A stretch of DNA of 64,000 nt from a virus (Duplodnaviria > Heunggongvirae > Uroviricota > Caudoviricetes), in IMG/VR virus record IMGVR_UViG_3300027887_000330. One strand, written 5' to 3'. The stretch's first letter is position 1; each line of letters starts with the position of its first letter. The translations under genes were made by a program, and so were the position numbers. The notes beneath the pieces were generated by a model. The model did not search any database. It had not been told where the DNA came from and worked only from the letters and a program-made list of their open reading frames with translations. Below, in pieces: positions 2,676-44,143 of the stretch.

Positions 2676-3698
2676 ATGTTTGATAAAATTTTACACATGC
2701 TAGAGGGCAAGAAGAAGCCCTCCTATCAAGACAGACTACAGAGCATACACGAGTTTTTTACCAAGTATGACCTGTACAAAGAGATGTGGCCAAAACAGCC
2801 GGACACCCCACTTTCTATAGTGTGGGCTGTGGGTACCCATTTCCCTGAGATATTTATGCAGCAGCTAGGGTCTTTCATGCAGTTTGATAATATCTTTCAC
2901 CCGGAAGATGACATCATCTTTGTGGCGGACGTCGAGAGAAAAGCAGACATAGTAACTAGCAAGTTTATGACCAAGAGCCTGCAGACACGGGGAGTAATAG
3001 TTAAGAGGCCACACCCTGGGGACGGCCCCGCCCTTAACTGGGACGTAGGTATGGATTATGCAAAACATGATCGGGTTCTCCTGATACGAGACTTAGGGCT
3101 ATTCTTTAATCCGTGGCACATGCTTTCAGAGGCTAGGTCTGTTAATATAGACAAGTCTCTGTACAACTTCAGCACAGTCCTGGGGCCAGTGTGGTCCCGC
3201 TTCTCCGATAGGTGGCTATACCTGGTACACCCAAGATTTGCCCCCAACCCATTTCTATTTTCTCTAGTGCTGAGTAAGGCCGATTACCTGTCAATGAATG
3301 GTTTTGATACAATACTGAGCCGGGGCTTTGATCACACGGGGGAGCTAGATTTCCTATTACGTTGGAATATGAAAGGCTACTCGTATGTTATGAGCGAAGA
3401 GGCACATGTATTCCACCCAGGAATATCAGCTAACTCTCAAGAAGAGCTCAATGAGATGCAATTCCAGTCTTCCATAAACAGGCGATACTTCTTTGATAGA
3501 TACGGAGAAAGCTTTATCAACGGACTCAAGCCTCCATATAAATCAGACATAAATATGATAGAAGTAAATCATGCGCTTACCTATGACCCTCTATCCGAAG
3601 TCATACTGGATGATTTTGACGAACAGCTAGAAGAAGTCAAGGACGCGTTCACCTTTAATAAATGGTACCATGAGAACTTGGTGCAGGAGGTTTTATGA
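2676..3698 (+). CDS. Hypothetical protein
   Basis: 340-aa ORF with good start context (GGAGAGGATATG), coupled to the upstream gene. No recognisable motif. Confidence 0.5.
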   Translation: MFDKILHMLEGKKKPSYQDRLQSIHEFFTKYDLYKEMWPKQPDTPLSIVWAVGTHFPEIFMQQLGSFMQFDNIFHPEDDIIFVADVERKADIVTSKFMTKSLQTRGVIVKRPHPGDGPALNWDVGMDYAKHDRVLLIRDLGLFFNPWHMLSEARSVNIDKSLYNFSTVLGPVWSRFSDRWLYLVHPRFAPNPFLFSLVLSKADYLSMNGFDTILSRGFDHTGELDFLLRWNMKGYSYVMSEEAHVFHPGISANSQEELNEMQFQSSINRRYFFDRYGESFINGLKPPYKSDINMIEVNHALTYDPLSEVILDDFDEQLEEVKDAFTFNKWYHENLVQEVL

Positions 3699-4288
3699 CT
3701 CTCAGAGAGCCTACCCCTGTCCAGAGAGTAGGCGCTGAACAGATCGGAAGATCATTCACGGAGACCAAGGTCTGTAGTAAGTGCGGGGACGAGAAATCCA
3801 TAGACGACTTTAATATACGGGGCAGACGAGGGGCCAGTAAGCTAAGAAATGTATGTAAGAAATGTCAGAAGATTTACGAAGAAAAAATTAAACCTCGAAG
3901 GAGACAGCGTTATCTGGATAATAAGGATGAAATATTACAAAAATGTAAGAACTATAGGCATAAAAACAGGGAAGAGATCTCGCGAAGGCGGGCGTTACGA
4001 AGGGAAGAGTTTAATATAACTGTTCACCTTTATTACAATGGGTGTTGTTTCATATGTGGTGTTACTGATAGCTGTCACGAAATGTACGACTGTCACCACA
4101 TAGACCCTTCTATAAAAGATTGGAATATCTCTAAAGCATACGCCTCTCCGTGGGATACGGTAGTTATTCCAGAACTTGAAAAATGTATTTATCTGTGCTC
4201 TAATTGCCATAGAAAGTTACACGGCCATAGGTTTGATGAACAAATTAAAACAGGCGAGCTAGTCTTAGTGCCTGGGAGGAAAACATAA
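3695..4288 (+). CDS. HNH endonuclease with N-terminal CxxC zinc fingers (probable homing endonuclease)
   Basis: CSKCGD...CKKCQ zinc-ribbon pairs, then DCHHIDP...CSNCHRKLHGH, a classic HNH motif. Confidence 0.65.
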   Translation: MTLREPTPVQRVGAEQIGRSFTETKVCSKCGDEKSIDDFNIRGRRGASKLRNVCKKCQKIYEEKIKPRRRQRYLDNKDEILQKCKNYRHKNREEISRRRALRREEFNITVHLYYNGCCFICGVTDSCHEMYDCHHIDPSIKDWNISKAYASPWDTVVIPELEKCIYLCSNCHRKLHGHRFDEQIKTGELVLVPGRKT

Positions 4289-11154: not shown

Positions 11155-11898
11155 ATGATAGCAATAAAGTATGGGTGGATCAAGGATAGCCCTGACGCCC
11201 GAGACAGATTGTACAATAAACCGAGGGGGCTCAGGAGGCCTAAGAAGCAGGACCTGAGACCCGCGTGTTCTCCCATTGAGAACCAGACCACTCTAGGCTC
11301 TTGTACAGCTAACGCGGCTGTAGGGACCACGGAGTTTCTGGAGATCAAGGATAAGGTCCAGTTTATAGACTTTAGCAGACTCTACGTTTACTATAACGAA
11401 CGTGTAATGGACGGGACCGTCAACGAGGATGCTGGATCTCAACTCAGAACAGCAGCGAAGGCTATGGCCAAGTGGGGCGTGTGCAACGAAAAGAGCTGGC
11501 CCTACAATGTAGATAAATTTACTATAAAACCACCGGCCAAATGTTACACAGAGGGAGCAAAGCATAAGATAACATCCTACAGACGCTTAGGTACCCTGGA
11601 TGATATTCTTGATTGCCTAGCCGAAGGTTACCCAGTTATGTTCGGCTTTGATGTTTACTCTTGCTTGAACGAAGTGGGCGCGGACGGCCTACTAAGAATG
11701 CCCACAGAGGATGATGAATATGAAGGCGGCCACGCAGTTGTCTTTGTTGGGTATGACATGGCCAAGAAACTTCTCATAGTTAGAAACTCATGGGGAGTAG
11801 AATGGGGTGATAAGGGTTACTTCTATATGCCTTTCGACTACGTGCTTAAAGGCTTAGCTAGTGATTTCTGGACCATCAGAAAAGGAGAAAACATGTAA
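11155..11898 (+). CDS. Papain-like cysteine peptidase (C1 family)
   Basis: QTTLGSCTANAA (Gln/Cys oxyanion region), GGHAVVFVGYD (His) and VRNSWGVEWGDKGYFYM (Asn/Trp), all canonical C1 motifs. Confidence 0.75.
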   Translation: MIAIKYGWIKDSPDARDRLYNKPRGLRRPKKQDLRPACSPIENQTTLGSCTANAAVGTTEFLEIKDKVQFIDFSRLYVYYNERVMDGTVNEDAGSQLRTAAKAMAKWGVCNEKSWPYNVDKFTIKPPAKCYTEGAKHKITSYRRLGTLDDILDCLAEGYPVMFGFDVYSCLNEVGADGLLRMPTEDDEYEGGHAVVFVGYDMAKKLLIVRNSWGVEWGDKGYFYMPFDYVLKGLASDFWTIRKGENM

Positions 11899-14684: not shown

Positions 14685-14852
14685 ATGTCAAAACTAAAGC
14701 CATGTCCTATGTGCAGCCCTGACGGGTGGCTGGACGAGGAGGGTAAGCCCGTGAGGGCCGTTAGAAGTAAACACCATTGTGAGTTTTGCGGAAGTACCGG
14801 AAAGCTCCTGGTGATAAAAGAAGATTTAGAGAACGAAGGGGAGGAAGAGTAA
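14685..14852 (+). CDS. Small zinc-ribbon protein (below track cutoff)
   Basis: ATG preceded by AGGAGGG. CPMC...CEFC pairs. Stop overlaps the next start (TAATG). Confidence 0.4.
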   Translation: MSKLKPCPMCSPDGWLDEEGKPVRAVRSKHHCEFCGSTGKLLVIKEDLENEGEEE

Positions 14853-15346
14853 TGAGCGAATTATGGGATGCAAGCGGAGCGGTAAAGGACACCGCAGAAG
14901 ATCTATTAGGAAAACATCACCCAGAGATAGCTACAGCATCATTTGGGTATGTATTTAAGGACAAGGCCGCGGCCGCAGAGATTGAGGCTGGGATTGTGGC
15001 GATGGCTAAAAAAGTCCCGCCTATTTACAAGCTGTTAACCAAGGATGACTTGGACTTTGTAATTGTTATAGCCAAGGACATGTTCGATGAACTAGAGCCC
15101 GAGGAGCAGGAAGCTCACCTGGACTCGGCGCTGTGCTCTTGTTCAGCAAAGCTGGATGAACACGGAGATTTCAAAGTTGATGCGGCCGGGAATCCCATCT
15201 ATTGTCTCAGGGCGTTTGACTTACAAGGACACTCCGAGGTATTAGCACGCTATGGTATAGACACCTTTGCTGAAGTGGGTGCCAGAATAAAGGCCGCTAT
15301 GGCTAAGGATAAAGACGACGAAGGGGCGGACATAGTAGAAGACTAA
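14852..15346 (+). CDS. Hypothetical acidic protein
   Basis: Start MSELWDA is coupled to the upstream small ORF. No motif. Confidence 0.45.
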   Translation: MSELWDASGAVKDTAEDLLGKHHPEIATASFGYVFKDKAAAAEIEAGIVAMAKKVPPIYKLLTKDDLDFVIVIAKDMFDELEPEEQEAHLDSALCSCSAKLDEHGDFKVDAAGNPIYCLRAFDLQGHSEVLARYGIDTFAEVGARIKAAMAKDKDDEGADIVED

Positions 15347-15358
15347 TAGGAAAGGCTT

Positions 15359-16003
15359 ATGAGTATTTTTCTCATGGAAGAAGAAAAACAATTAGAGAAA
15401 CTTAAACAAGAAGCAATAGGGTGTTATGAGTGTTCGTTTGGGCACTCATGCACCCAAAAAGTTTTTGGTGAGGGGCCTTTAGGCGGCTCTATTATGAGTA
15501 TATCTGAAGCCCCGGGCGCAGAAGAGGATGCTTCTGGAAGACCCTACATGGGTAAGGCTGGGCGTTTCTGGGAGGGGATGCTTAGGTCGGTAGGGATGGA
15601 ACGGTCAAATCTATATATCTGTAATGCCTTAAAATGCAGACCTCCCAATAATAAGATAGAAGGATTGGTAGAGCTAGATGCTTGTAAGCATTTTTTAATC
15701 AAGCAAGTAGCTATTATACAACCAAGATTAATCTTGGTGTTTGGAAAACCAGCGGCTTACGCCCTGGGGATATTGGCTCAGGCAGATTATGGGAAACCAG
15801 TAAAGACAAGATTAGGCATACAAAAGGAACCCTACAAATATGTGGGACTGGACGGGGTCCAAAGGACGGCAAGGATTATGTGGACGTATCATCCCTCTTA
15901 TTTACAGAATAAGCCGGATGGGAGAAATTACTGTTTCCAAGCTTATAAGCAGTTGTGTGATGCGAAGAAGCTTCTGGAGGCAGATTTACCGTGGGATGGA
16001 TAA
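15359..16003 (+). CDS. Uracil-DNA glycosylase, family 4 (Fe-S type)
   Basis: GEGP...SEAPGAEED...GRPYMGKAGRF motif A. HPSYL motif B. Four Cys (CYEC...C, C...C) for a 4Fe-4S cluster. Confidence 0.8.
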   Translation: MSIFLMEEEKQLEKLKQEAIGCYECSFGHSCTQKVFGEGPLGGSIMSISEAPGAEEDASGRPYMGKAGRFWEGMLRSVGMERSNLYICNALKCRPPNNKIEGLVELDACKHFLIKQVAIIQPRLILVFGKPAAYALGILAQADYGKPVKTRLGIQKEPYKYVGLDGVQRTARIMWTYHPSYLQNKPDGRNYCFQAYKQLCDAKKLLEADLPWDG

Positions 16004-16719
16004 CAGACAAAATCGAGAGCGGAAAGCCGATAACGGCTAAGAGTCTATATAATAAATTTGGTTTCAGACACGTTATAGGAGTTCACATATATGCACGGAG
16101 GGCCATAGCTGGTCCTATCTGTGTGGCTGCGGTCACTATAAGGCCTAATCATAAGTTTGATTTAAAAGATGTCAGCCAACTAAGCATGACAGACTGCTAC
16201 AAGTTGAATGATGCTATACGAAGGAAGGCTGACCTGCTTAATCTAGGGTGGGCTTCTGTTGATAGTATAAATAAGCTAGGCATACATGAAGCCATAATGT
16301 CAGCTATTAGGTCTGCCTTGATCGGGGTCTCGGAGTTTGACCCACCTAGTCTTTTATTCATTGATGGCTTCCAGATGGAACCGATGATCAATGGGCTTAG
16401 AGACTCCCAAACTCCGGTTATTGTAGTTAAAAAAGGAAAGGAACAAGTAGATGTCATAGCGGCAGCCAGTGTTGTCAGTAGGGTCGCTAGGGATAGTCTT
16501 ATGTCTTGGATGCACAAAGAATACCCCGAGTATGAGTGGGAACAAAATGAGGGCTTTGCTACACCAAGACACATACAGTTAATAAAGGAACACGGGATAA
16601 GCATTTACCATAGAGATTTGAGTAATGTAAAAGCATTAAAGGATTTCAGGGCTTTTCCCAATGAGCGGTGGAGGAAACAATATGAAGATAGTTATTTTGG
16701 CGAACGAGATTGGGGATAA
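15991..16719 (+). CDS. RNase HII homolog with degenerate catalytic residues (predicted inactive or repurposed)
   Basis: Clear RNase HII pattern (IAAASVVSRVARDSLM, FIDG, GFATPRHIQLIKEHGISIYHR). The DEVGRG catalytic box reads HIYARRA and the KGD box reads KKGKEQ. Confidence 0.65.
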   Translation: MGWITDKIESGKPITAKSLYNKFGFRHVIGVHIYARRAIAGPICVAAVTIRPNHKFDLKDVSQLSMTDCYKLNDAIRRKADLLNLGWASVDSINKLGIHEAIMSAIRSALIGVSEFDPPSLLFIDGFQMEPMINGLRDSQTPVIVVKKGKEQVDVIAAASVVSRVARDSLMSWMHKEYPEYEWEQNEGFATPRHIQLIKEHGISIYHRDLSNVKALKDFRAFPNERWRKQYEDSYFGERDWG

Positions 16720-17692
16720 ATTATGGCCCCTGACTAACGCCAAAAATCCCAAGGCCTTACTAGCCTTGTATAGTGAAAACTCTATGTTAGTTGAGACTAT
16801 TAGTCGTTGTCTACCTCTGTGTGTAAACAAGGGAAAAGATATCTACATAGTATCTACGGCTGAATCCAAGAAAGTAATCAGAGAACAAAAAATCCATCAG
16901 AAATTTGGTATACCCTTAAAGAATATAATAGACCTGTCCCCTAACACGGACGAACCAGCACTGATCATAGGAGAGATGGTTGAGGTATTTAGCCACCTGC
17001 CTGATGAAGAGTTAGTGTGTTTCGTTCCGTCGGACCAGTTTTATTGGCCAGAGGAGGGCTTTGTCTTTCATTTGAATAACACAGCTAAGGGAGCTGAGAC
17101 TAATCCTGATCACATCATGTTTATGTCTATGCTTCCTGGGATGCCTGCTGGTAGTATGAATTACATTAATGTAGACTGGAAAAAAGATAGCACCGTAGGT
17201 ACAGTCTTTGATGCCCCCACGGAGAGCGGTACAAATACACTAAGCACCACTATGGTTTCTATCCTAGACTATCGCAGAGTATTGGATCCTGGTACAGCAG
17301 AGGAACTGGTACTTAAAAAGTGGCTATGGGATCTCAAAACCTGGGTATCTTATTTAAAGAATTTTAGGAAACATATCACGGGGGCTACTGATTTCTATGA
17401 AGAACTCTTGCCAAAACTTATACTAAAAGATGTGCTAAAGGCAACTATAGCTAACAAGGTAGTATGGTCAGTGTTAGATAATTGGGCAGCCCTAAAATAT
17501 CTTACTTATGATGCTGGTCTGTTTCCTGTTAAAGAAGACCCGAAGGTGCATACCATAGACGCTTCGGGTAATCTCGTTAAGAGAATCAGTGATAAAGAAA
17601 TAATACTTATAGGAGTTGAAGACTTGATTGTAGTAGAAACAGAAGACAAGCTATTGATCGCTACACCGGGGGGAGCGTATGAGCATCTATAA
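16661..17692 (+). CDS. Mannose-1-phosphate guanylyltransferase-like nucleotidyltransferase domain protein with degenerate G-loop
   Basis: KIVILANEIGDKLWPLTNAKNPKALLAL aligns to ManC [24 protein letters not shown]. C-terminal DLIVVETEDKLLIA matches the ManC DLVVVQTKDAVLIA. No cupin/PMI domain. Confidence 0.5.
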   Translation: MSGGGNNMKIVILANEIGDKLWPLTNAKNPKALLALYSENSMLVETISRCLPLCVNKGKDIYIVSTAESKKVIREQKIHQKFGIPLKNIIDLSPNTDEPALIIGEMVEVFSHLPDEELVCFVPSDQFYWPEEGFVFHLNNTAKGAETNPDHIMFMSMLPGMPAGSMNYINVDWKKDSTVGTVFDAPTESGTNTLSTTMVSILDYRRVLDPGTAEELVLKKWLWDLKTWVSYLKNFRKHITGATDFYEELLPKLILKDVLKATIANKVVWSVLDNWAALKYLTYDAGLFPVKEDPKVHTIDASGNLVKRISDKEIILIGVEDLIVVETEDKLLIATPGGAYEHL

Positions 17693-18344
17693 GCCCGAGT
17701 CCCGGGTAGCTTTTGACATTGATGGAATAGTATTAGATACTGCCACAGCTATATGGCGGGCGGTCACAAGTCATTATGACATACCAGCCTCGATAGAGTC
17801 GTGGAAAGAATATTACATAGAGAAACAGCTTGGTATTCCTCAGCAGGACCTGAGACCAGTTTATGAACCAGTGATGGCCAAGACAGATCTGCCTCTGTTG
17901 AAGGGTGCGGCCAGGGCCTTAAAAGCCTTTCATGAGGCTACTCAAGAGCCTATTTTATTCATCACTGCACGGAGACCCCAATTTGTAGCCAGTGCTGCGG
18001 CTTCTATACGAAGAGAACTTCCTGATATAGAACTAGAAATCATAGCAGCCTCGGAGTCAGCCGCTAGGCTAGGTGATAATAAAGGGCATGATAAGACTGA
18101 GTATCTAAAAAATCATGGTATTGAATTTTTTATTGATGACCACCCGCATTCATGGCAGAAATATGTTGACGCTGGGATAGTGGTTGGTACAATTGACTGG
18201 CCATGGACCAGGGAACTTGCCAAATCTATGAATAGGAAACGATTCATCATGTTCAAAGACTGGAAAGAAATCGGTGAGTTCTTATCCACGGGCCTGGCCG
18301 CAAAAAAGCTTTTTCAGGAACTAAGGGAGTTGCCTACATTATGA
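17679..18344 (+). CDS. HAD-superfamily hydrolase (possible sugar-phosphate or nucleotide phosphatase)
   Basis: N-terminal FDIDGIVLDT is HAD motif I (DxDG). About 220 aa. Confidence 0.5.
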   Translation: MSIYKPESRVAFDIDGIVLDTATAIWRAVTSHYDIPASIESWKEYYIEKQLGIPQQDLRPVYEPVMAKTDLPLLKGAARALKAFHEATQEPILFITARRPQFVASAAASIRRELPDIELEIIAASESAARLGDNKGHDKTEYLKNHGIEFFIDDHPHSWQKYVDAGIVVGTIDWPWTRELAKSMNRKRFIMFKDWKEIGEFLSTGLAAKKLFQELRELPTL

Positions 18345-19490: not shown

Positions 19491-20468
19491 TTGTATAGAA
19501 TGGCAGAAAGCAAAGATCCCAGAACGCCCAAGATGAAATCAGTAGTCAAGGCGATCTGTGAAAACTTCGAAGAGAAAAAGATTCAAAGTAGGAAAGGCCA
19601 GGGCGGCAAGTCTTTTAACTACGTTAAGGCACAAGAGTATATAGTTAAATTGAATGACGTATTTGGTGTAGCTTGGAGTATTGAAACTATCAGCCATAGC
19701 TTCGCTAATAATAACATAGTTATGTGGGTGAGAATTACTTACCCTAACCCTGACAACCCGGACCAGTTGTTCCATAAGGACGGTTGGGGCAGTCACCCGA
19801 TTGCTGGGGACCCAGGGAATGCATTCAAATCAGTTTATTCAAAGGCATTCACTAAGGCAGCCTCTATGATAGGGGCCGGACTACACCTGTGGGGAGTAGA
19901 CGCTGACGAAGACGACGCCCCTGTATGGGATCAAATGGGGACCCCTCCAGCAGCGGCAGTTCCTACCGGAGTAACTGGTCTACCACCAGTTCCTAGTCCT
20001 CAGGGGACTGCAGGAAGCCCTCTTCCTCCACCGCCCCCTCATACTGGAACGGGCGTACCACTAGCCCCGCCACCACAGGTTACAGGGCACCCTTTGCCTC
20101 CACCTCCGCAGTTCTCTAATAGCGGAGCGGGCGTAAACCCAGGAGCGGCTTATATACCACCATTACCACCCCCTCCTATCCCAACGGGGAATCCAGGAGC
20201 AGTGGATACAACTCAGGCAGTCGGCATAACTAGCGGGCCAGATACACCTGCTTCTGCCGCGATAGGAATACCCAGTTCTGGAAGACCGGGCGGCATAGAA
20301 GATTTTCAGGTTAATGGGATATTAGGAGCGGCTGTAACCAGAGCTATGGATCCACTCCAATTGGTCGCTAGTATTCTAGGTCAAACTGGAATAACAGATA
20401 TAGGACAATTGACTGCTGAGCAAGCTCAACGAGTTTTAGATGCCGTTAGGCAGATGCCTCCGCAGTAA
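19491..20468 (+). CDS. Rad52/Sak-like single-strand annealing protein with Pro-rich C-terminal tail
   Basis: N-terminal domain pattern KLNDVFGVAWSIE...VRITY resembles the Rad52/Rad22 family. C-terminal 150 aa is a P/G-rich low-complexity tail. Confidence 0.4.
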   Translation: MYRMAESKDPRTPKMKSVVKAICENFEEKKIQSRKGQGGKSFNYVKAQEYIVKLNDVFGVAWSIETISHSFANNNIVMWVRITYPNPDNPDQLFHKDGWGSHPIAGDPGNAFKSVYSKAFTKAASMIGAGLHLWGVDADEDDAPVWDQMGTPPAAAVPTGVTGLPPVPSPQGTAGSPLPPPPPHTGTGVPLAPPPQVTGHPLPPPPQFSNSGAGVNPGAAYIPPLPPPPIPTGNPGAVDTTQAVGITSGPDTPASAAIGIPSSGRPGGIEDFQVNGILGAAVTRAMDPLQLVASILGQTGITDIGQLTAEQAQRVLDAVRQMPPQ

Positions 20469-20479
20469 GGTAGGTATAA

Positions 20480-22510
20480 ATGTTGGATTATAAAAAGATT
20501 AAGCTAGACGATTACAATTTGGAGATCGAGGTTGGGGTAGTTCCTAACAGCTCAACCTCTGATTTCCTTTCTAATCTGAGGGTAGGCAACACTATCGCTA
20601 AGAGCGACTATGAAGAGTTTTTGTTGTCTAGTTTAGTTCGAAATTTCCCTGGCTTGGTAAAACGCCTTGGCTCTATAGCCGATGACCAAGAAAAGAATGT
20701 GATACGACTGCGACTACTGGAAGCTATCTATCATTTAAATTCCAAGCTGCAACCCGGTCATGTAATCATACACGACCAGAGATTGTTACACAGAATGGAT
20801 TCAATACGCGGCGGTGGCCCCTCGGAACCCGTGCTTACAATGAATCCGGGTTGGTTAGATTCCAATAAAGGAGACTTACAAGTGTTTGCTGCCCCTGTAC
20901 AGGAGCTGATTAACAACATATGGGAAGAGCTTAAGTCTGATAGGTCTAAAGACTATACCTTAATGAAGGTGAACGTACTAGAAATGGAACTGCCTATTTT
21001 AGTTCTGTCTAGTACTAAAGTTGATCTGGACGACTTGATCGTGGATTTTTTATTCAAGAAGTGCGATGGTAACTTATTTTTGGCTAAGCACGATCTGAGA
21101 TTATGGATTGGCTATGTACTTGCTGTATCTATACCTCATATAGAGAAAATTATTTATGCCCTGGCCAAATCTAATTACATGAATGCTTACACTGAGAATG
21201 TAATTTATACTCAGATGTACATGTCTGTATTAAAGATTAATCCAGAGTTAAATTGGGAGATCATAGACTGGGACTCATTTCAGAACCAAGAGACCAGCCA
21301 GAAGGAACCAGAAGAGACACGTATACGGCGTATAACTTCCAAGACTCCTCTAACTAGAGAGAAGATTAGGACTTCGCGAGAGGAGGCGGAAGAAGAGAAG
21401 CCAAAGTTTAGGGACGTTCCGTATGAAAAAGTTTTAGGGTTACCCGCTGAGGTAAAGACCAGGATTATAGGGCAGGACCAGGCTGTTGACTCAGTATGTG
21501 AGTCCATAGCTGTAGCTAGAGTGGGCCTCCGGGGAGATAAAAAACCCGTAGGAACGTTCTTGTTTGCCGGAAAAACTGGTGTTGGTAAGACCGAGTTGGC
21601 TAAAGTATTGGCTGATGTCTTAACAGACCATGAGCCCATACGGATAGATTGTTCTGAGTATCAGCAAGCTCACGAGATCTCCAAGATCTTTGGGGCTCCC
21701 CCAGGCTACATAGGATTCGAAGACGATGGCAAGCACCCTAATCAGGGGACTCCACCGGCAACGGTAGCTTCTAAACTGAAGGAAAAACCATTTAGTGTCG
21801 TACTTTTTGACGAAATAGAAAAAGCTGACCCTGCTATTAACAATGTCCTTCTACAAATTATGGACGAGGGGCATGTAACCAGCGGGCGCGGGGAAGTAGT
21901 ATCATTCAACAACGCTGTTGTGATACTTACTTCTAACATCGGTACAGCTGAGGCTGAGGAGGCTTGTTTAAAGGAAGACTTGGGCTTCGTGATAAACGAA
22001 ATTGATAAGTGCTCCCTAGCCGAGGAAACAATTAAGTCATCCATACGAGAAAGGTTTAAACCAGAGTTTCGTAATAGGCTGACGGAGACGATCATATTTA
22101 ATTCTCTAGAGAAGGATACCTGTAAAGGAATAGTAGACGTATTGCTGAGAAAGACCAAGGAGAACCTGGAAAAGGCCCAGCATATATCTATGAAGTGGGA
22201 CGATGCAGTTAGAGATTTTGTACTGAGTGAAGGTTTTAGCGAGGACTTCGGAGCCCGTGAGATGGAACGAGTAATTCAAAAGCAAATAGAATTGCCTCTG
22301 GCTAGGCATATACTAGAAAATAAATACATGACTGCTAAGAAGGCAGAGATGCCAGCCGGGTCTACAATACATCTTAGTATAAAAGCCGGTGAGTTAACAT
22401 TTAAAATTAAGGATGATACTAATGAAAAAACTGATATTCGGAGAGCAAGACTTTCTAGTACAGATGTCACCCCTGGAAGGAAGTCCAGATCGGGTAATAA
22501 TCAGACATAA
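20480..22510 (+). CDS. ClpA/ClpB-like AAA+ ATPase (D2-type module with unknown 300-aa N-terminal domain)
   Basis: GQDQAVDSVCESIA...FLFAGKTGVGKTELAKVLA (Walker A). VVLFDEIEKA (Walker B). sensor/SRH VVILTSNIG. ClpB_D2-small-like C-terminus. Confidence 0.75.
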   Translation: MLDYKKIKLDDYNLEIEVGVVPNSSTSDFLSNLRVGNTIAKSDYEEFLLSSLVRNFPGLVKRLGSIADDQEKNVIRLRLLEAIYHLNSKLQPGHVIIHDQRLLHRMDSIRGGGPSEPVLTMNPGWLDSNKGDLQVFAAPVQELINNIWEELKSDRSKDYTLMKVNVLEMELPILVLSSTKVDLDDLIVDFLFKKCDGNLFLAKHDLRLWIGYVLAVSIPHIEKIIYALAKSNYMNAYTENVIYTQMYMSVLKINPELNWEIIDWDSFQNQETSQKEPEETRIRRITSKTPLTREKIRTSREEAEEEKPKFRDVPYEKVLGLPAEVKTRIIGQDQAVDSVCESIAVARVGLRGDKKPVGTFLFAGKTGVGKTELAKVLADVLTDHEPIRIDCSEYQQAHEISKIFGAPPGYIGFEDDGKHPNQGTPPATVASKLKEKPFSVVLFDEIEKADPAINNVLLQIMDEGHVTSGRGEVVSFNNAVVILTSNIGTAEAEEACLKEDLGFVINEIDKCSLAEETIKSSIRERFKPEFRNRLTETIIFNSLEKDTCKGIVDVLLRKTKENLEKAQHISMKWDDAVRDFVLSEGFSEDFGAREMERVIQKQIELPLARHILENKYMTAKKAEMPAGSTIHLSIKAGELTFKIKDDTNEKTDIRRARLSSTDVTPGRKSRSGNNQT

Positions 22511-22618: not shown

Positions 22619-23158
22619 ATGAAGTGGAGTGACCGCGAGCTGGGACATTTAAGAATGATTTTAGAGAGATATCAATCTCATTCTGTTCATGACATGTCCC
22701 AGCTTGCACATAAAACAATTAAGAGGAGATCCGCTAACGCTATAAGCCACAAGCTTCGAGAGTTAATTGCGGAGCAGGAATTCAAGGACGATCATATAGA
22801 AGTAAATGGAGTTGTATATCCTGCACAAGTAATTTCTGGATACGTAGTAATGACACTGCCGGACGGGATCATGTACCCGGCTCATATATTTGTATGGGAG
22901 AGTGAGTTTGGGCCGGTCCCCGTGGGCTATCACATCCATCATATAAACGGTAAGAGCTATGACAATAGGCTAAAAAACTTACAGCTGATGTCAGCCCCTG
23001 ACCATATTCGACTCCATACTTCAGGCCAACCCTCGGAAACTGCCATGTTATTTTGGTTCTTACAAGAACATAATATGTGGAGTAACTATCTGGATTACCG
23101 TAAGCAGATAATTGAATCAGACTGGTGTAATAAACCAAGGGAAGAAGGAACTGAATAA
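22619..23158 (+). CDS. HNH homing endonuclease
   Basis: GYHIHHINGKSYDNRLKNLQLMSAPDHIRLH HNH motif. Confidence 0.7.
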   Translation: MKWSDRELGHLRMILERYQSHSVHDMSQLAHKTIKRRSANAISHKLRELIAEQEFKDDHIEVNGVVYPAQVISGYVVMTLPDGIMYPAHIFVWESEFGPVPVGYHIHHINGKSYDNRLKNLQLMSAPDHIRLHTSGQPSETAMLFWFLQEHNMWSNYLDYRKQIIESDWCNKPREEGTE

Positions 23159-23568
23159 TGGAATGCTTAAACTGTCCGCACTGCGGACAACTATTAACGA
23201 CTGTTGAGACTCCGGTATTTTCGAAGTGGGGGGGAGTAGAACTGAACATATGTTTAAATGATTTTTGTGATTATTTTGCACGTTCATGGAAAATGCTATC
23301 TGAACAGTCTGGCTCGTGGTTAGGTTATCGTTATTTTCATGGAGAAAATGGCCAAGAAGGACCGATAGCAGTGGCCTCCGTGGACACTTTTAAAGACTCT
23401 ACTATTACTGAAGAAGAAAAGAAATCACGCCAGCAACGTGCCTATAATCGTGAGAAAGAATTTAGAAATTTATTAGAGGCTATCTCCTCCGCAGAGGAAA
23501 AAAAAGACTTACAATTGTCTGAGTGGCTTCAAGAGCTTAGGAAATTAAAATATCCTAATAAAACCTAA
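23158..23568 (+). CDS. Zinc-ribbon protein
   Basis: CLNCPHCG...CLNDFC pairs. Last gene of the plus block. Confidence 0.45.
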   Translation: MECLNCPHCGQLLTTVETPVFSKWGGVELNICLNDFCDYFARSWKMLSEQSGSWLGYRYFHGENGQEGPIAVASVDTFKDSTITEEEKKSRQQRAYNREKEFRNLLEAISSAEEKKDLQLSEWLQELRKLKYPNKT

Positions 23569-24490
23569 GGTTTTTCTTACGTTTTAAACCTAATTTAAAA
23601 GCTCTCATCTGTATACCAGACCAGTTACGGCCAGGGAGCTTTTTCATTAGGTCCTCCCTCAACATGATATCATAATTTTTTCTAAGGAGGTCGTCTTCGT
23701 GTGGCCTCCAAATACAATTATGAATAGGTTCAGGGTTGTCTATAATTTCCTTTGCTTTGGAGTGTTTTCTATCCATATATAAATTTGATCCTTCATAGAT
23801 ATATCTTAGGAAGTGCCACGCATCCCTACCAGAGTAAGTAACACACCATGAGGTCCCTGATTGAGTCACATTATAGTTATTTGCCCATACCTGTGAAAAA
23901 CATTGGTGTACGAAGGTAATCATTTGCTTATTTCCCGTTATATTTGCCTCCGGCCTATTGTGGTTTCTACCTCCCATTCTTACACACCCGTCACCGTCAA
24001 ACAGCCCCCTGATAAAGTGTCTAGTAAGTTCCGGAGGCAAGACCGGCGGGTTTACAACTTTGGATTTTTTTGGAATTATATTATAGGATGAAAGGCTTCG
24101 TAGCAATTCTGTATTATAGATACACAGCCCTTTTTGTGCCTTAGTATTTTTATACCCTCGTTTGTAACTAATAGGCGAGTCTGGGGAAGCTAGATTACGG
24201 ATTTTTATTAGTATGTCTTCGTCAGATTCCTGTAACCACAGGTTAATAGCTCGGTGATTTATACACCCATCAGCAGACCACATCCCTAATATATACGCTT
24301 TTTCTTCTGAATCAATCTTAGAGAAATCCAAGACTACTTTTCTAGGGACTCTTTTCTGCAAGCTATGTCGACTTATTTTATTTCGAATTGCTATAATGTC
24401 CCGTCTTGGTAGTAGTTTACATAAATCAGGGCCTTCCATATTTGGATAGTTATCTTCTAAAATTTTGAGCTCCTCTTTTGACCAACGCAT
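23555..24490 (-). CDS. LAGLIDADG homing endonuclease (double-motif)
   Basis: YILGMWSADGCI and FIRGLFDGDGCV, two LAGLIDADG blocks. Confidence 0.8.
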   Translation of the reverse strand: MRWSKEELKILEDNYPNMEGPDLCKLLPRRDIIAIRNKISRHSLQKRVPRKVVLDFSKIDSEEKAYILGMWSADGCINHRAINLWLQESDEDILIKIRNLASPDSPISYKRGYKNTKAQKGLCIYNTELLRSLSSYNIIPKKSKVVNPPVLPPELTRHFIRGLFDGDGCVRMGGRNHNRPEANITGNKQMITFVHQCFSQVWANNYNVTQSGTSWCVTYSGRDAWHFLRYIYEGSNLYMDRKHSKAKEIIDNPEPIHNCIWRPHEDDLLRKNYDIMLREDLMKKLPGRNWSGIQMRAFKLGLKRKKNLRFY

Positions 24491-29322: not shown

Positions 29323-31302
29323 CTATAACGTAGCGTTGATGGCGTCCATGAGATCACCCTCGGACCAGATCAACACCTTATTGTCCTTGGCAAAAGTCAG
29401 TTTCTTGGGACCGGCTTCCTTGCCAGCTAAAAGTATGTTAACTTTAGCACTCAAGGAACCCACGCATTTTCCTCCGTACTGAGCTATAAGAGCTTTGAGA
29501 TCCTCGCGCGGGGTGCTGTGATTTCCTGTGACTACAAACACCTTTCCTTTCAGCTTGTCGCTGGTTACGGTAACCGAAGCGACTTCGTCAAACGTCATCA
29601 GGTGTAGCAGCCCGTTTACCAAGTTCCTGTTTACTTGCTGGCTGAAGAATTGTTTTGTGTTCTCTGCAATAGCCGTTCCAATACCGTCCAAAGATAAGAT
29701 GTCTTTAGTATCGGCGTCCATGACAGCTTCCATAGTCTTGAACTTCTCTGCGAATTGTTTTGAGACACTGCGCCCTACCAGAGGAATACCTAACGAATAG
29801 ATGAACCTATCCAGAGTAGTGGCCCTGGCTTTCTGTATGGCCGCTATGATCTTTGCTGCCAGCTTGTCCCCCATCCTCTCCAACCCTGCAAAATGCAAAG
29901 GCATAAGAGTAAACAGATCGTAGGGGCTTTGAATTATTTTCTTATTAACCAGCTGTTCGACGACCTTCTCGCCCAGCCCCTCTATGTTTAGGGCGTCCCG
30001 GCAGACGAAGTGTTTGATGCTCTCAGCCAGTTGTGCTATACATGTTTTATTGGTACAGCGTAAGGCGGCCTCTCCTGTAATCCTGACGGCTTTGCTTCCA
30101 CAGGCAGGGCAAGTATCAGGTATTATGAAAGGACCGTCAGTTTTCTTCTCAGAGACTTTAACGACCTCTGGGATAACATCCCCCGCCCGTTGGATTATAA
30201 CCTTGTCACCGACGTTGATGTTCTTGGCGTTCAACATGTCTTGGTTATGCAGCGTGGCCCTGGATATGGTGGCTTGTCCCACTTTCACCGGCACTAACTC
30301 GGCCACAGGAGTCAGAGTCCCTGTTCTGCCTACCTGCACTGTGATGCTCTTGACTGTTGTCTCTGCCTGTTCAGCCTTGAATTTGAGAGCGATGGCCCAC
30401 CGAGGTGCTCGGGAGGTGAAGCCCAGCTTCTCCTGTTCATCTGTTCGGTTTACTTTTATGACAGCTCCGTCTATATCATACGGGAACTTGGACCTGTCTT
30501 CCTCTATTTTCTTTACTTGGTCTACCAAACCATCCACAGACTTAACATGAAAGGTGACCGAAGACGGAATGTGCAGACTGTCAAGAAAGAGTTGCTTCGC
30601 CGTTTGACTATCTAAATCTCTCCCCTCTGCTAGTAACTCGTACCCGAAGAAGCGAAGTCTTCTCTTGGCCGCCTTTTGAGGGTCGAGATTTCTTACCCCT
30701 CCCGCTGCGGCATTACGAGGGTTGACATAGGTATCTTCTCCCTCAGCCTCTCGCTCTGCATTGATGGCTAAAAGGTCTTTTTTGTAAATAACAACTTCTC
30801 CGCGTACACGGAAGAACAGATTAGAGTCAAACTTACCTCCCACATCAAGAGGGATACCCCTGATTGTCCGTATGTTGTGGGTGACGTCTTCCCCAGTTTC
30901 CTTGTCGCCCCGCGTAGCAGCCAGCACAAACTTGTTAGCGTCATAAACCAGCTCTATCGCTAGTCCGTCGAGCTTAGGCTGCACCACAAAATCAGAAGAT
31001 CCAGTCTTCTTCGCCCACTTCCGCAGTTCGTCTAGGCTGAATACATTATCCAAGGACAGCATGGGGACGGCGTGCTTAACCTTCGTGAAGCTGCTTAGGG
31101 GGGCGGAACCCACGCGCTGGGTGGGGCTAGTGGAGACGATCAGATCAGGATAAGCCTTCTCCAGGTCCTGCAACTCCTTCATCTTCTCGTCGTATTCTTG
31201 GTCTGATATGGTAGGAGAGTCCAACGCGTGGTACTGATAATTGGCGTTGTCAATCTCCCCGCTGAGTTCCTTAATCCTCTTTTCAGCTTGCTCTTTTGTC
31301 AT
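29323..31302 (-). CDS. ligA: NAD-dependent DNA ligase LigA
   Basis: Adenylation motif KLDGLAIELVY (KxDG). OB domain. Cys4 zinc finger CPACGS...C..C. HhH region. C-terminal BRCT (VFVVTGNHSTPREDLKALIAQYGGK). 659 aa. Confidence 0.9.
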   Translation of the reverse strand: MTKEQAEKRIKELSGEIDNANYQYHALDSPTISDQEYDEKMKELQDLEKAYPDLIVSTSPTQRVGSAPLSSFTKVKHAVPMLSLDNVFSLDELRKWAKKTGSSDFVVQPKLDGLAIELVYDANKFVLAATRGDKETGEDVTHNIRTIRGIPLDVGGKFDSNLFFRVRGEVVIYKKDLLAINAEREAEGEDTYVNPRNAAAGGVRNLDPQKAAKRRLRFFGYELLAEGRDLDSQTAKQLFLDSLHIPSSVTFHVKSVDGLVDQVKKIEEDRSKFPYDIDGAVIKVNRTDEQEKLGFTSRAPRWAIALKFKAEQAETTVKSITVQVGRTGTLTPVAELVPVKVGQATISRATLHNQDMLNAKNINVGDKVIIQRAGDVIPEVVKVSEKKTDGPFIIPDTCPACGSKAVRITGEAALRCTNKTCIAQLAESIKHFVCRDALNIEGLGEKVVEQLVNKKIIQSPYDLFTLMPLHFAGLERMGDKLAAKIIAAIQKARATTLDRFIYSLGIPLVGRSVSKQFAEKFKTMEAVMDADTKDILSLDGIGTAIAENTKQFFSQQVNRNLVNGLLHLMTFDEVASVTVTSDKLKGKVFVVTGNHSTPREDLKALIAQYGGKCVGSLSAKVNILLAGKEAGPKKLTFAKDNKVLIWSEGDLMDAINATL

Positions 31303-38138: not shown

Positions 38139-39272
38139 TTAGGTCAATATAATAGGGACAGCATTGGTACCATTTCTGTATTCCAAAGCTGCCGCTACGG
38201 TAGTGGTCCTTGGTTCCACGCCCTCGATGTGCCAGGTTCCAGTGGACGGGTTTAACATTTTCAGATAGGGCCGATTTCGGTTAGCATCAATCGCCAGATT
38301 GACTAACTCATACTTGCCGTCGTCGCTCTTGTCTAGGAGGGTGGCCCCTAATTCTGCAAGTACCCTCTCAATTCCTATCTTTCTGACTAGCTCGCGCCGG
38401 ATCTCAGCGTTTCTAGTTTTTGTGATCATTTCGGCCTTCAGCTTTTCGGCTGGGGTAACAACGACCTGCTTCGATACCCGAACGTCATTCATGCAGTAGA
38501 TGCCCGACTTCAGTTTAGGAAAGTAAATTGCCGGGCCGTCCTCGCGGTGTAGGAAGTTCCTGCTGTCTATGTGTAGAACAGGTTTTTCCACCAGGATCAG
38601 CTTGTTGTTTATGAACAGGATCGAATACAAGTTCAAGGCTATTGTCTCACAGGCCTTGATGTATTTCAAAGTTGTCTTGGCGTCCTCGACATAGTACTTG
38701 CCAAGGGCATAGACCTTCGGGTAGTTCGCTACCCTAAGGGGCAGAACCGATCTGGAGTAGTAATTACGGGTTCTCCAGTCGGTTACGATAGGGGATTTCT
38801 TGTTCAGGTTGTACATCTTCCCAGAGATGGTCTTGGCCTGATTGACTAGTCTATTCACCCGTCCTATATAAAGCTGGGTGATGACCCCGATGTCGAGGAA
38901 AGTATCAAGGAGCTCTTGTGGCGGCTTTGGCTCCGCCCAGTAACCGAATAGGCCTGAGTGTAGAAGACTGTTGACAGTGGAAAGTTTGTTAGTAACTCCC
39001 CAATGAGCCTTATAATAGCTGGACATTTGTTCAGCTAGTGTAGCCTCTCCTACCTTTGCTGGCTCAAGGTCTTTGGTTTTGAGCTCCGAAAGCCATAGTA
39101 ATTTAGGCTTCTTGGGAACTACAGCGATGTCTGCCACAACCGTGCGAACAGCTTTAAACACATCCGATTCGCTGTCCGTCTTATCCCCGATCAGCCGCCC
39201 CTTGAAAAATAAGGCTTGATCCTGAATTTCCTTCATCAATACTTTGTCTTTAGGGTCTAATTTTACATCCAT
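38139..39272 (-). CDS. Hypothetical protein coupled to the radical SAM gene
   Basis: 377 aa. Start overlaps the stop of the radical SAM gene. Confidence 0.5.
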   Translation of the reverse strand: MDVKLDPKDKVLMKEIQDQALFFKGRLIGDKTDSESDVFKAVRTVVADIAVVPKKPKLLWLSELKTKDLEPAKVGEATLAEQMSSYYKAHWGVTNKLSTVNSLLHSGLFGYWAEPKPPQELLDTFLDIGVITQLYIGRVNRLVNQAKTISGKMYNLNKKSPIVTDWRTRNYYSRSVLPLRVANYPKVYALGKYYVEDAKTTLKYIKACETIALNLYSILFINNKLILVEKPVLHIDSRNFLHREDGPAIYFPKLKSGIYCMNDVRVSKQVVVTPAEKLKAEMITKTRNAEIRRELVRKIGIERVLAELGATLLDKSDDGKYELVNLAIDANRNRPYLKMLNPSTGTWHIEGVEPRTTTVAAALEYRNGTNAVPIILT

Positions 39273-40312
39273 TAAATCGTTCGCTCCGTTTTTTCACATG
39301 GGTTTATGCCAGGCAACACATGACAACTATGACATAGGTCGTTAACATCACAGCCTGGGCACGCCGTGGTCACTTTTTCTCGGTAAGGTTGGAGTTTCTC
39401 TTTCCATATCTCCTCAAAAGAGTGGTCATGTAAACTAAACTTGTCTTTGAGATTGAAAGAGCAGGGAGATACGGTGAGATCCTCCCCAACAAACACGCTG
39501 AAGCAACCACTGTCACAAGGTCCGAGTGTATATCTCGGAAGGTCTTGGCGGGGCACAATGGACATAAGGGAGGGTGAAAAGCAACTATCAATTCCTACGC
39601 TTACCTTTCCCTTATAATTCCTCAGGGATTTTACAAACCTGAGTTTCTGGTCTCGATGGGGATGCTGTTCCCAGCTCCCCCGCCCGATGGGTTTGTGCAT
39701 CAAACAGATACACGAATACAGAGGGTATTTCCCGCCGAACAAACCCTCTCCCTGTGCTGCTATGTCTAGTTCGTGGCCCCACTCATCAATGTGTGCCTTG
39801 TCTAAAACGACATGGATAGCGGGCTCTATCCCTGCCTCTAGCAGCCGTTCAACCTCCTTTAACGCCGTCCGTCTGTTGTGCATCGAAATTGCTACAGCTC
39901 CAGCATAGCGTTTGGTAGCCTCTAGTATCTCGTCTGTCATGTCTACGCCATTTGAAGTGTAGCTGGGCGGTATTCCTTTGTCATGAGCGATCCTCAGGAT
40001 CTCGATGAATTCGGGGTGGTGCTGCGGGCTGCCGCCCCCAATTGCAACTTGAAGAACGTGAGGACTCATAGCGTCTAATACTGCCGCGAAATCCGACGGA
40101 CTCATGTGGTGACTCTTACTAGGGTCGCTCTCCCTGTAACAATACTCACAGTTAAGAGGACAATAGTCAGTAATATGAATGTCCGCTAGCTCCGGACCGT
40201 GCAGAGAAAATTTTGGATCTGAATAACCGGGTTTTTCCTTCCTTAAGAACTCTCCTGTTTCCACATCGAAAAAAACCACATAAGTTCCGTAATCAATGAC
40301 TTTGATTGGCAT
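39272..40312 (-). CDS. Radical SAM enzyme with C-terminal SPASM-like auxiliary Fe-S domain
   Basis: CPLNCEYC (CxxxCxxC) near the N-terminus. C-terminal CFSVFVGEDLTVSPC then CPGCDVNDLCHSC then C fits the SPASM pattern. Confidence 0.7.
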   Translation of the reverse strand: MPIKVIDYGTYVVFFDVETGEFLRKEKPGYSDPKFSLHGPELADIHITDYCPLNCEYCYRESDPSKSHHMSPSDFAAVLDAMSPHVLQVAIGGGSPQHHPEFIEILRIAHDKGIPPSYTSNGVDMTDEILEATKRYAGAVAISMHNRRTALKEVERLLEAGIEPAIHVVLDKAHIDEWGHELDIAAQGEGLFGGKYPLYSCICLMHKPIGRGSWEQHPHRDQKLRFVKSLRNYKGKVSVGIDSCFSPSLMSIVPRQDLPRYTLGPCDSGCFSVFVGEDLTVSPCSFNLKDKFSLHDHSFEEIWKEKLQPYREKVTTACPGCDVNDLCHSCHVLPGINPCEKTERTI

Positions 40313-42739: not shown

Positions 42740-44143
42740 TTACTCTTCCAGTTCTATGAGGTATGTTACTGTGCATTGCTCCAATTTGTAGACAATGAAT
42801 TCGTCGTTGTATAGGCTGCCCAGTCGTGCGAGGGCAGAAATACTGTGGTAACCTGACGGGGCACCCTGTGTTTTGGAGGAGCCCACCTCATAGGTTTTAC
42901 CCATAGCGAATTTACATCTCAAAAGGAACGTGTTTTTGAATGTGTTTCTCCTACCAGACCATCCCCCTACGCTGTAGTTTAATGACTTAGTAGATGAATT
43001 AGCGCCATAGATACCATTCCCAAACATTCTCCCGGTGACGTGCCCGGCAGAAACCGGAGGTATAATGAGGCCGCCCAGCATGATGCTGAGTAAATTAGCG
43101 TTCTGAGATCCGTGAAAGAATTCTTGTGTGTTTCCATATTTGGCTTCGGCCTTTTCGTACCTTTCCCGCTCCTTCCCAATCTTTATTATGTAGGCGTTCT
43201 TTACTTTCCACCTATCCAGATGGGCGTGTTTCTTTGTTCCGTTAACCGTATCCACCAAGTCTTTGTAGACTTTTGTTTTCTTGTCTATAGGCTCTATGTC
43301 AGTTTCGAATCCGCTGAACTGCTTAGAGGCATTGGTATTGGTAGTCATACCCATCTTTACGGACGCCTCTAGCTGGTCTAGCAAGTCATATTCTTCAGCG
43401 AGTTTAACATCGGTTATGATCCAGTCGTCTCTCGTTATTTTTCTTCCAAACTGATGGGGGATCTTACTGTAATAGAAGTTATTACTCATCCGGGTGATTT
43501 CTTTGTCCGGATCTATCTGGCCATCCTCAGACATCATATCCTTCAGATCATTCAGCGCCCGTCGAGCGTCATTAACCGTGTTAATGGTTACTGGCCCCAG
43601 CGCGGTCTCAAGTCCGTTTGCGGTAAGCGTGATGCTGGAGAGTGACGTAACTTTATGTATGTTTTCTTGTGCGAACTGCTCGATCAGCCGCTGGACATCT
43701 GGGTCAAATCTAGACGCTTCGTTAATTATCTCCTTGGCAGAAAGTTGAGTTGCTACGTCTTTAGTTGCCTTGCCCCTTACGTTAGGGGAACCTACTGTAG
43801 GACTAACCAACTCTACTAACTCATAATTCTCTCGGCGTGAAGACCCATCTTCTTCTTTTATGTTCTTTCCCTTGAGCTTCTTCTTAACTATGGAATCAAA
43901 TTCACTCTCCGCATTATAGAGAGCAGGCCATGGCCCGCGCTCGTCATAGACGCTGCTGGTATTTATTCTCCCATAGTGTGTAAAAAGTCTGTAATTCCCT
44001 GAGGCCGGGTCATGCTGTATCTCTATGGAGTAGAACTTATTATTATTCCCCTCGATATTTCCACAGCATAAAACCGTATGCTTAATTGTTTCTGTATAAG
44101 GACCGGGGCTGTCATCATACAGTTTCGTTGCTTTTACTGCCAT
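42740..44143 (-). CDS. Poly(ADP-ribose) polymerase homolog (WGR domain, helical domain and PARP catalytic domain)
   Basis: N-terminal WGR-like FYSIEIQHDPASGNYRLFTHYGRIN. Catalytic FHGSQNANLLSIMLGGLIIPP...VTGRMFGNGIYGANSSTKSLNY...YNDEFIVY aligns with the PARP1 H-G-S, G-I-Y and YNEYIVY blocks, giving an apparently intact H-Y-E triad. Confidence 0.8.
   Translation of the reverse strand: MAVKATKLYDDSPGPYTETIKHTVLCCGNIEGNNNKFYSIEIQHDPASGNYRLFTHYGRINTSSVYDERGPWPALYNAESEFDSIVKKKLKGKNIKEEDGSSRRENYELVELVSPTVGSPNVRGKATKDVATQLSAKEIINEASRFDPDVQRLIEQFAQENIHKVTSLSSITLTANGLETALGPVTINTVNDARRALNDLKDMMSEDGQIDPDKEITRMSNNFYYSKIPHQFGRKITRDDWIITDVKLAEEYDLLDQLEASVKMGMTTNTNASKQFSGFETDIEPIDKKTKVYKDLVDTVNGTKKHAHLDRWKVKNAYIIKIGKERERYEKAEAKYGNTQEFFHGSQNANLLSIMLGGLIIPPVSAGHVTGRMFGNGIYGANSSTKSLNYSVGGWSGRRNTFKNTFLLRCKFAMGKTYEVGSSKTQGAPSGYHSISALARLGSLYNDEFIVYKLEQCTVTYLIELEE

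Follow-up and report, generated by a model that had tools for sequence, protein, structure and literature searches.

The window analysed here, a 64,000-nucleotide stretch of DNA from the Caudoviricetes record IMGVR_UViG_3300027887_000330 of IMG/VR, carries an open reading frame (ORF) for a 242-amino-acid protein that has the fold of ribonuclease HII (RNase HII) but is very probably not a working RNase H. Most of its catalytic and ribonucleotide-sensing residues are gone, the loss is shared by a clade of relatives on phage-like contigs that has been held under purifying selection, and the gene overlaps a gene for uracil-DNA glycosylase (UDG). We termed the protein a pseudo-RNase HII. Our preferred but tentative explanation is that it may bind DNA without catalysis, as an accessory protein of the phage module for uracil repair and replication, acting with the UDG; the caution applies to this statement as a whole, the proposed role included. 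The gene and its start signal are located as follows.

15991–16719 (+): ORF of the RNase HII-fold pseudo-enzyme, 242 amino acids, GTG start, stop codon included, identified by ORF calling, Pfam, the PDB, AlphaFold2 and Foldseek.
15976–15980 (+): GGAGG, a Shine-Dalgarno-like sequence 10 nucleotides 5′ of the GTG start, read directly in the sequence.

At the position of this GTG, the relatives have ATG.

The homology of the protein to RNase HII is well beyond chance. It matches Pfam PF01351 with E=1.4e-17 (64.7 bits against a cut-off of 25.8) and RNase HII chains of the PDB with E=6e-21 to 7e-17 (phmmer). An AlphaFold2 model built on a 42-sequence alignment has a mean predicted local distance difference test score (pLDDT) of 89.1 and a predicted TM-score (pTM) of 0.86, and its best Foldseek match in the PDB is the Thermotoga maritima RNase H2 on its substrate (3o3f, E=1.5e-17), with Staphylococcus aureus RNase HII and Escherichia coli RNase HII in a transcription-coupled repair complex among the other top matches. 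These results bear out an initial annotation, made without database searches, which had aligned the protein along its length with RNase HII, and every string it had quoted is present: HIYARRA (residues 32–38), FIDG (123–126), KKGKEQ (147–152), EGFAT (187) and IAAASVVSRVARDSLM. All nine NCBIfam RNase HII equivalog models score below their cut-offs (best NF000595, 127.9 bits against 167), PHROGs returns only a family of unknown function, and the BFVD viral structure library holds no full-length match.

The active site of T. maritima RNase H2 consists of D18, E19, D107 and D124, and activity is lost when the equivalent of any of the first three is mutated; the fold's key carboxylate is the strand-1 aspartate, which binds both metals (PMC3025331). 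The 2′-OH at the RNA-DNA junction is read by the GRG loop together with Y163, whose replacement by phenylalanine seriously reduces activity, while K47, K122 and K138 contact phosphates and R22 inserts into the minor groove (PMC3025331). We mapped these residues onto the 242-amino-acid protein by HMMER alignment and counted conservation in an alignment of 192 retrieved proteins, with 169 canonical homologues and 18 sequences of the clade. T. maritima K138 corresponds to R164, and the other positions fall in the following elements.

16084–16104 (+): HIYARRA (residues 32–38), formerly the DE(V/A)GRG box; D18 corresponds to H32, E19 to I33, and the 2′-OH sensor G21-R22-G23 to A35-R36-R37 (GRG to ARR).
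16168–16176 (+): DVS (D60-V61-S62), formerly DSK (D-S-K47), with the phosphate-contacting lysine gone.
16363–16365 (+): D125, the equivalent of D107 and the sole retained catalytic carboxylate, D or E across the clade (18/18).
16432–16452 (+): KGKEQVD (residues 148–154), formerly the KGD box; K122 corresponds to K148 and D124 to K150.
16555–16557 (+): F189, in place of the junction tyrosine Y163.

Seven of the positions concerned (D32, E33, D60, K62, D125, K164 and Y189, in the numbering of the window protein) are invariant among the 169 canonical homologues, and three more nearly so: G37 in 168, S61 in 167, and an acidic residue at position 150 that is D in 165 and E in four. Against this background, the window protein keeps one of the four DEDD carboxylates (H32, I33, D125, K150), so that the earlier claim of three lost acids (D to H, E to I, D to K) stands. 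Nor has the clade gained a conserved acidic substitute, position 32 being H, Y, S, A or G and position 33 I, L or V, and the protein is predicted to be unable to bind the two catalytic metals in the canonical way. By the same alignment, the loss extends to the elements that confer ribonucleotide specificity, namely the GRG loop, the DSK lysine and the junction tyrosine: position 37, glycine in nearly every canonical enzyme, is R, K, N, T, Q, S or another residue in the clade, the DSK positions vary, and position 189, tyrosine in all 169, is F in nine clade sequences, Y in six and something else in the rest. The equivalent of R22 is present in the window protein as R36.

The initial annotation had allowed that a sequencing error or an alternative start might restore the acids; this is excluded, as independent metagenomic relatives carry the same substitutions. 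An alternative start or a frameshift is further ruled out by a canonical alignment that runs unbroken from residue 19 through the motif, by the start common to the relatives and by losses common to 18 independent sequences.

The family that shares these losses is small and sharply bounded. A word-based search found eight close relatives, all metagenomic and 61–74% identical; below them no match appears until about 36%, the level at which ordinary RNase HII sets in. In an exhaustive profile search, only 11 of 1.84 billion cluster representatives had E<1e-30, all 11 lacking the catalytic residues, and the score then falls sharply from 176 to 121 bits at the step to canonical enzymes. Distant members (P0045–P0053, 33–44% identical to the window protein) are also without DE, DSK and KGD, and one more distant member, P0075, shows the same residue loss. 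The clade comprises 18 sequences (about 12 clusters at 50% identity), a small sample for the clade-wide statements made here, all of them intact full-length ORFs on metagenomic phage-like contigs; the relatives are large uncultured phages of about 150–210 kb. A neighbour-joining tree, computed without support values, places the 18 in one monophyletic group with P0075 basal, and because they form one clade a single old inactivation is the simplest history.

Elsewhere the family is rare. IMG/VR yielded one distant partial match only and the JGI metagenome contigs one extra short locus. The clade is absent from the 185,579 species-representative genomes of GTDB, where only ordinary cellular RNase HII was found (best-segment identity at most 44%, mostly Bacteroidota) and which gave no prophage or host assignment. 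Among phage records, the pseudo-RNase HII matches only ordinary RNase HII at no more than 34% identity, with no cultured-phage relative. The cellular RNase HII genes nearest to the clade in C-terminal domain patterns are mostly those of Bacteroidota (Bacteroidales, Flavobacteriales) in a scan that was pattern-biased (L013–L060); given that bias, these matches may hint at the origin of the gene or at the host phylum.

Selection has maintained the gene. In codon alignments of the window gene and four orthologues, nonsynonymous divergence (dN) is 0.21–0.29 within the close group and 0.52–0.59 when L005, a distant orthologue, is compared. Most pairs are saturated at synonymous sites; where synonymous divergence (dS) could be computed, the dN/dS ratio (omega) is 0.077 (window against L007) and 0.24 (L005 against L007), the UDG gene giving 0.052 for the window–L007 pair. 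The loci with identical proteins, L002/L003 and L005/L006, are also identical in DNA and carry no synonymous-only signal. As selection has kept the gene across the lineage despite the lost residues, a repurposed non-enzyme is indicated and not a broken gene. The pseudo-enzyme status proposed earlier is therefore strongly supported, three of the four DEDD carboxylates being gone across a monophyletic clade under purifying selection.

The distribution of conservation along the protein points the same way, and it distinguishes the following parts.

16450–16614 (+): C-terminal helical domain (residues 154–208), including R167, G188, H194, H207 and R208.
16372–16419 (+): clade-specific eight-residue insertion, P.PNGLRDS.TP (residues 128–143), located after strand 4 and before what was the KGD loop, adjacent to the old active site.
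16615–16716 (+): clade-specific C-terminal tail, DLSNVKALKDF.AFPN... (residues 209–242), modelled with moderate to low confidence.

In the C-terminal helical domain, identity is 0.50 within the clade, 0.53 among canonical enzymes and 0.42 between the two; in the catalytic domain (residues 28–153) the corresponding values are 0.30, 0.39 and 0.23. The equivalent of the phosphate-contacting K138 is retained as K/R164 in 17 of the 18 clade sequences; R167, H194, H207 and R208 are retained too. The clade has also made gains: D154, at the start of a long helix, is acidic (D or E) in all 18 and variable in canonical enzymes; the tail is conserved within the clade and only about 10% identical to canonical enzymes; and W3 and Y20 (both in a helical extension at the N-terminus), W87, P118/S120, W183 and the tail residues L210, K214, L216 and F222 are conserved as well. 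Such a pattern is the signature of a repurposed protein and not of a decaying one.

The surroundings of the gene provide a clue to its use. The window falls in a region of an uncultured phage that serves replication and nucleotide metabolism and that encodes a PD-(D/E)XK nuclease, a PolA that has a 3′-5′ exonuclease domain and lacks a 5′-3′ exonuclease domain, a class II ribonucleotide reductase (RNR), ThyX, a PF18894 metallopeptidase, a family-4 UDG, the pseudo-RNase HII, a ManC-like nucleotidyltransferase, a 221-amino-acid protein of unknown function (phrog_420), a deoxynucleoside monophosphate (dNMP) kinase, a Rad52-like protein and a ClpB-like ATPase. No phage record is more than 29% identical to the PolA. 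Immediately around the gene lie the following elements.

14786–15346 (+): PF18894 putative phage metallopeptidase, a conserved gene upstream of the UDG gene in the same module.
15359–16003 (+): family-4 UDG, the upstream overlapping partner gene, motifs intact.
15991–16003 (+): 13-nucleotide overlap between the start of the pseudo-RNase HII ORF and the 3′ end of the UDG gene (stop codon at 16001–16003).
16682–17692 (+): ManC-like nucleotidyltransferase, the conserved downstream neighbour, overlapping the 3′ end of the pseudo-RNase HII gene; its start is probably the ATG at 16682 (the mechanical ORF begins at 16661).

Contigs of 72, 149 and 210 kb preserve the order metallopeptidase – UDG – pseudo-RNase HII (overlapping) – nucleotidyltransferase ... 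Rad52 – ClpB-like, and their pseudo-RNase HII orthologues are 63%, 44% and 34% identical to the window protein. The UDG/pseudo-RNase HII overlap itself is kept in close relatives and extends to 26–32 nucleotides in distant ones, an arrangement typical of translational coupling, and the overlapping pair occurs in eight of nine contexts, which include all the informative ones from the main lineage (the window, L001, L002/L003, L005/L006, L007, L008, the P0049 contig and L011). The UDG of the window passes TIGR00758 (135.5 bits against a cut-off of 125.3), and its alignment to T. maritima TM0511 (1l9g/1vk2) contains SEAPGAEED (motif A), GRPYMGKAG, CNALKCRPPNN, HPSYL (the HPS of motif B) and the four Fe-S cysteines, from which the enzyme is apparently intact and functional. 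The initial annotation had rightly placed the gene between this UDG and sugar-nucleotide genes and had missed the pairing, which is the strongest contextual clue to the role of the pseudo-RNase HII.

The nucleotidyltransferase was considered as the true conserved partner and set aside: it is kept in the main lineage but absent beside P0075, as the UDG is, and neither pairing is universal. A defence or anti-defence reading was likewise rejected, PADLOC giving no match for the pseudo-RNase HII or its neighbours. No natural UDG–RNase HII fusion occurs among four long RNase HII homologues, one of which is fused to a UPF0102/NERD domain.

Putting these observations together, we propose the following account. 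The pseudo-RNase HII is a folded RNase HII-type protein very probably no longer capable of two-metal RNA hydrolysis. Its catalytic half has been remodelled, with DE, GRG, DSK and KGD gone, an insertion beside the old site, and a helix at the N-terminus and a tail at the C-terminus that are both new. The C-terminal helical domain holds the uncleaved strand of the duplex in genuine RNase HII, and in the clade it is as well conserved as in active enzymes. Because this domain and the K138 equivalent are conserved while the ribose-reading elements vary, docking on double-stranded nucleic acid without ribonucleotide specificity seems the most likely property, and the conserved domain and K/R164 would argue for generic duplex binding at most. 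The protein would bind but not cut double-stranded DNA. That the overlap of the two genes is conserved suggests joint production with the UDG and a part in the same process. Family-4 UDGs bind their abasic product tightly and show product inhibition; the pseudo-RNase HII might, for example, hold or hand over DNA at the abasic sites that the glycosylase makes, or alternatively tether the glycosylase to the replisome.

Several observations weigh against this proposal. The minor-groove arginine (T. maritima R22) is not conserved in the wider clade. Some members have near-neutral or acidic isoelectric points of 5.9–7.1; the median of the clade (8.4, against 9.1 for canonical enzymes) is uninformative as a proxy for DNA binding. 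The basal P0075 lies in an unrelated neighbourhood without a UDG, which shows that the pairing is not universal, and in a phage operon with such dense packing an overlap of genes argues only weakly for physical interaction. The P0075 locus (L012 1–3592, on the 102-kb contig logan:SRR31558128_568) lies just downstream of a called gene with a product of 14,423 residues, followed by a 796-amino-acid protein without a Pfam match.

A more specific version, in which UDG and dead RNase HII constitute a dedicated two-protein module, is speculative and, as a complete statement, unlikely. Here the RNase HII shell would read or clamp the abasic sugar in duplex DNA without cutting, and would couple uracil excision to the replisome or shield apurinic/apyrimidinic (AP) sites from host nucleases. 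If true, this would be a previously undescribed class of repair accessory, in which an enzyme of ribonucleotide excision repair has been recruited to base-excision repair.

Equally unlikely is that the protein is a pure protein-protein adaptor, docking for example on a sliding clamp, the single-stranded DNA-binding protein (SSB), the phage polymerase or the host RNA polymerase (RNAP) and making no contact with nucleic acid. E. coli RNase HII binds RNA polymerase, and its RNAP-bound transcription-coupled ribonucleotide excision repair (TC-RER) complex (7uwe) is among the top structural matches, while an archaeal RNase HII that binds the sliding clamp PCNA through its C-terminus (3p83) is also among the Foldseek matches; the conserved clade-specific N-terminal helix and C-terminal tail would suit such docking. 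Conservation at the canonical level, however, sits in the substrate-binding C-terminal domain and not only in the new termini, and reading the tail by eye revealed no clamp-binding or PCNA-interacting peptide (PIP) consensus, nor was a partner identified.

Another explanation, which we regard as distinctly improbable, starts from a suggestion of the initial annotation, that the protein still binds RNA/DNA hybrids or ribonucleoside monophosphates (rNMPs) and blocks host RNase HII at ribonucleotides in phage DNA. It would then be a decoy or shield that binds ribonucleotides or RNA primers in the phage DNA uncut, or senses such sites. Dead mutants can indeed hold substrate, as the D107N mutant of T. 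maritima RNase H2 was crystallised on a duplex with a single rNMP (PMC3025331), and the fold and C-terminal domain are retained here. The residues that read the ribonucleotide, however, are lost or unconstrained, GRG having become [AG]R followed by a variable residue, the tyrosine phenylalanine in the subgroup of the window protein, and the DSK lysine having disappeared. Retained hybrid or rNMP binding is consequently not supported, with the equivalents of GRG, Y163 and K47 (and, in the wider clade, R22) lost or unconstrained. Moreover, because the phage PolA keeps its steric-gate glutamate (DYSQQELR), an rNMP-rich genome or heavy rNMP incorporation is not indicated, and the blocking of host RNase HII found no positive evidence. 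The lack of a PADLOC match also speaks against a decoy, as does the fixed position of the gene in a replication/repair operon and not among early anti-host genes.

Of similarly low probability is a new enzyme, with a different active site on the old fold (for example D/E125, E151 and D/E154 at the start of helix E) directed at another nucleic-acid lesion or at a nucleotide. Positions 125 and 154 are acidic in all 18 clade sequences, the latter being variable in canonical enzymes, the conserved insertion flanks the old site, and RNase H1, Tn5 transposase and Argonaute have the fourth carboxylate on helix E (PMC3025331). Yet the strand-1 aspartate has no conserved acidic replacement (H/Y/S/A/G at 32, I/L/V at 33), H32, K150 and E151 vary across the clade, and D154 may merely cap its helix. 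Finally, a decaying pseudogene, a frameshift or a sequencing artefact of a normal rnhB can be dismissed almost entirely, since beyond the missing residues nothing favours it, while at least 18 independent sequences, the most distant about 33% identical, have intact full-length ORFs with the same loss pattern, the dN/dS ratio lies well under 1, the start is conserved with its Shine-Dalgarno sequence and the AlphaFold2 model is confident.

RNase HII is regarded as a uniformly catalytic housekeeping enzyme. Literature searches, whose coverage did not extend to all journals and which give absence of evidence only, found no paper on a catalytically dead RNase HII in phages, and the words "phage", "pseudo" and "non-catalytic" never occur in a review from 2026 that treats RNase HII and ribonucleotide excision repair. 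A monophyletic, selected and dead RNase HII family tied to a UDG would mean that the fold can be reused for a non-hydrolytic job, for which the 242-amino-acid protein is a concrete and easily expressed test case. The automatic names of JGI label clade proteins "ribonuclease HII", a functional label that is probably mistaken. If shown to bind a specific structure, a naturally inactive binder of RNase H2 type could also find use as a nucleic-acid probe.

Other genes of the window and its relatives deserve mention in their own right. Within the replication module, a Rad52/Rad22-like annealing protein (19491–20468, +) has a long proline-rich, low-complexity C-terminal half with PPPP repeats, and beside it in all related contigs is the ClpB-like AAA+ protein (20480–22510, +), which matches the PADLOC candidate-defence models PDC-M37B (E=5e-30) and DolB (1e-27), probably through the shared AAA+ domain. 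Homing-endonuclease-type genes, two HNH and one LAGLIDADG, are scattered in the module (3695–4288, +; 22619–23158, +; 23555–24490, −), and an HNH_3 gene follows the ClpB-like gene at the same place in related contigs. Two sugar-nucleotide-type sets are present: a nucleotidyltransferase, a GHMP kinase and a SIS isomerase that look like a heptose-type pathway (233–2666, +), and the ManC-like nucleotidyltransferase with the 221-amino-acid phrog_420 protein, adjoining the dNMP kinase (16682–18344, +); DNA hypermodification and host surface modification are candidate roles.

Further away, a 467-amino-acid protein (42740–44143, −) combines WGR, PARP regulatory and PARP catalytic domains (Pfam 2.5e-11, 4.7e-12 and 2.3e-22), a full eukaryote-style PARP architecture in a phage, without a PADLOC match. 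A TROVE (Ro60-like) and VWA protein (60793–62235, −) has tRNA genes on both sides (59651–59851, 60491–60751 and 62305–62391, −; four Leu, one Ser and one Pro). The partners of Ro60 orthologues are usually Y RNAs, which resemble tRNAs, for which reason a gene of Y-RNA type may be present among these tRNAs or next to them; at its gathering threshold, Rfam reported only tRNAs. Other cargo comprises an NAD-dependent DNA ligase with a BRCT domain (29323–31302, −), a radical SAM protein (39272–40312, −), a DHH/DHHA1 phosphoesterase (47231–48322, −) and a papain-family (C1) cysteine peptidase (11155–11898, +), and related contigs also encode S-adenosylmethionine (AdoMet) decarboxylase and a pyruvoyl arginine decarboxylase.

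Compared with bacterial RNase HII (T. maritima RNase H2, 3O3F/3O3G; E. coli, 7UWE), the pseudo-RNase HII has the same fold over its whole length at about 30% identity and TM-scores of 0.69–0.86. The two have in common the core motifs G30, AGP (40–42), D125, AA (158–159), R167, YPEY, G188, H194 and H207-R208. The pseudo-RNase HII, in contrast, is without D18, E19, D124, GRG, the DSK lysine and the junction tyrosine, and it adds the N-terminal helix (W3), the eight-residue insertion, D/E154 and a tail of about 30 residues. Substituted catalytic positions are also found in P0140, an RNase HII homologue of 219 amino acids from outside the window, in which DEDD has become D-K-N-N. Unlike the clade, however, P0140 keeps the strand-1 Asp, an SSK (DSK-like) motif, the Tyr/GY motif and the canonical length, and it falls outside the phage clade in the tree, which suggests that it degenerated independently and that catalysis has been lost more than once in the RNase HII family.

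Closer to the likely origin of the clade is P0054 (contig L009), a phage-borne canonical RNase HII that scores among the best of the canonical proteins against the clade profile (E=6e-30). Its gene belongs to a comparable phage replication module (PolA – a gene for about 200 amino acids – RNR ... RNase HII) and the protein has the signature YP.YDWNKN.GY.T...HIEA.KKYG in common with the clade, but it keeps DE, DSK and KGD and has no adjoining UDG. Because P0054 combines an intact active site with a phage-like replication module as its setting, an active phage enzyme is a plausible ancestor, and the clade plausibly descends from one ancient inactivation of a phage-borne RNase HII. A precedent among phage replication proteins is the PolA of N4-like phages, in which an inactive family-4 UDG domain is conserved in the replication apparatus and for which a non-catalytic role in processivity has been proposed (PMC10201439). 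Like the pseudo-RNase HII, that domain is a repair-enzyme fold without its catalytic residues, conserved in a phage replication context (PMC10201439); it differs in having another fold and in being fused to the polymerase, whereas the pseudo-RNase HII is free-standing beside an apparently active UDG.

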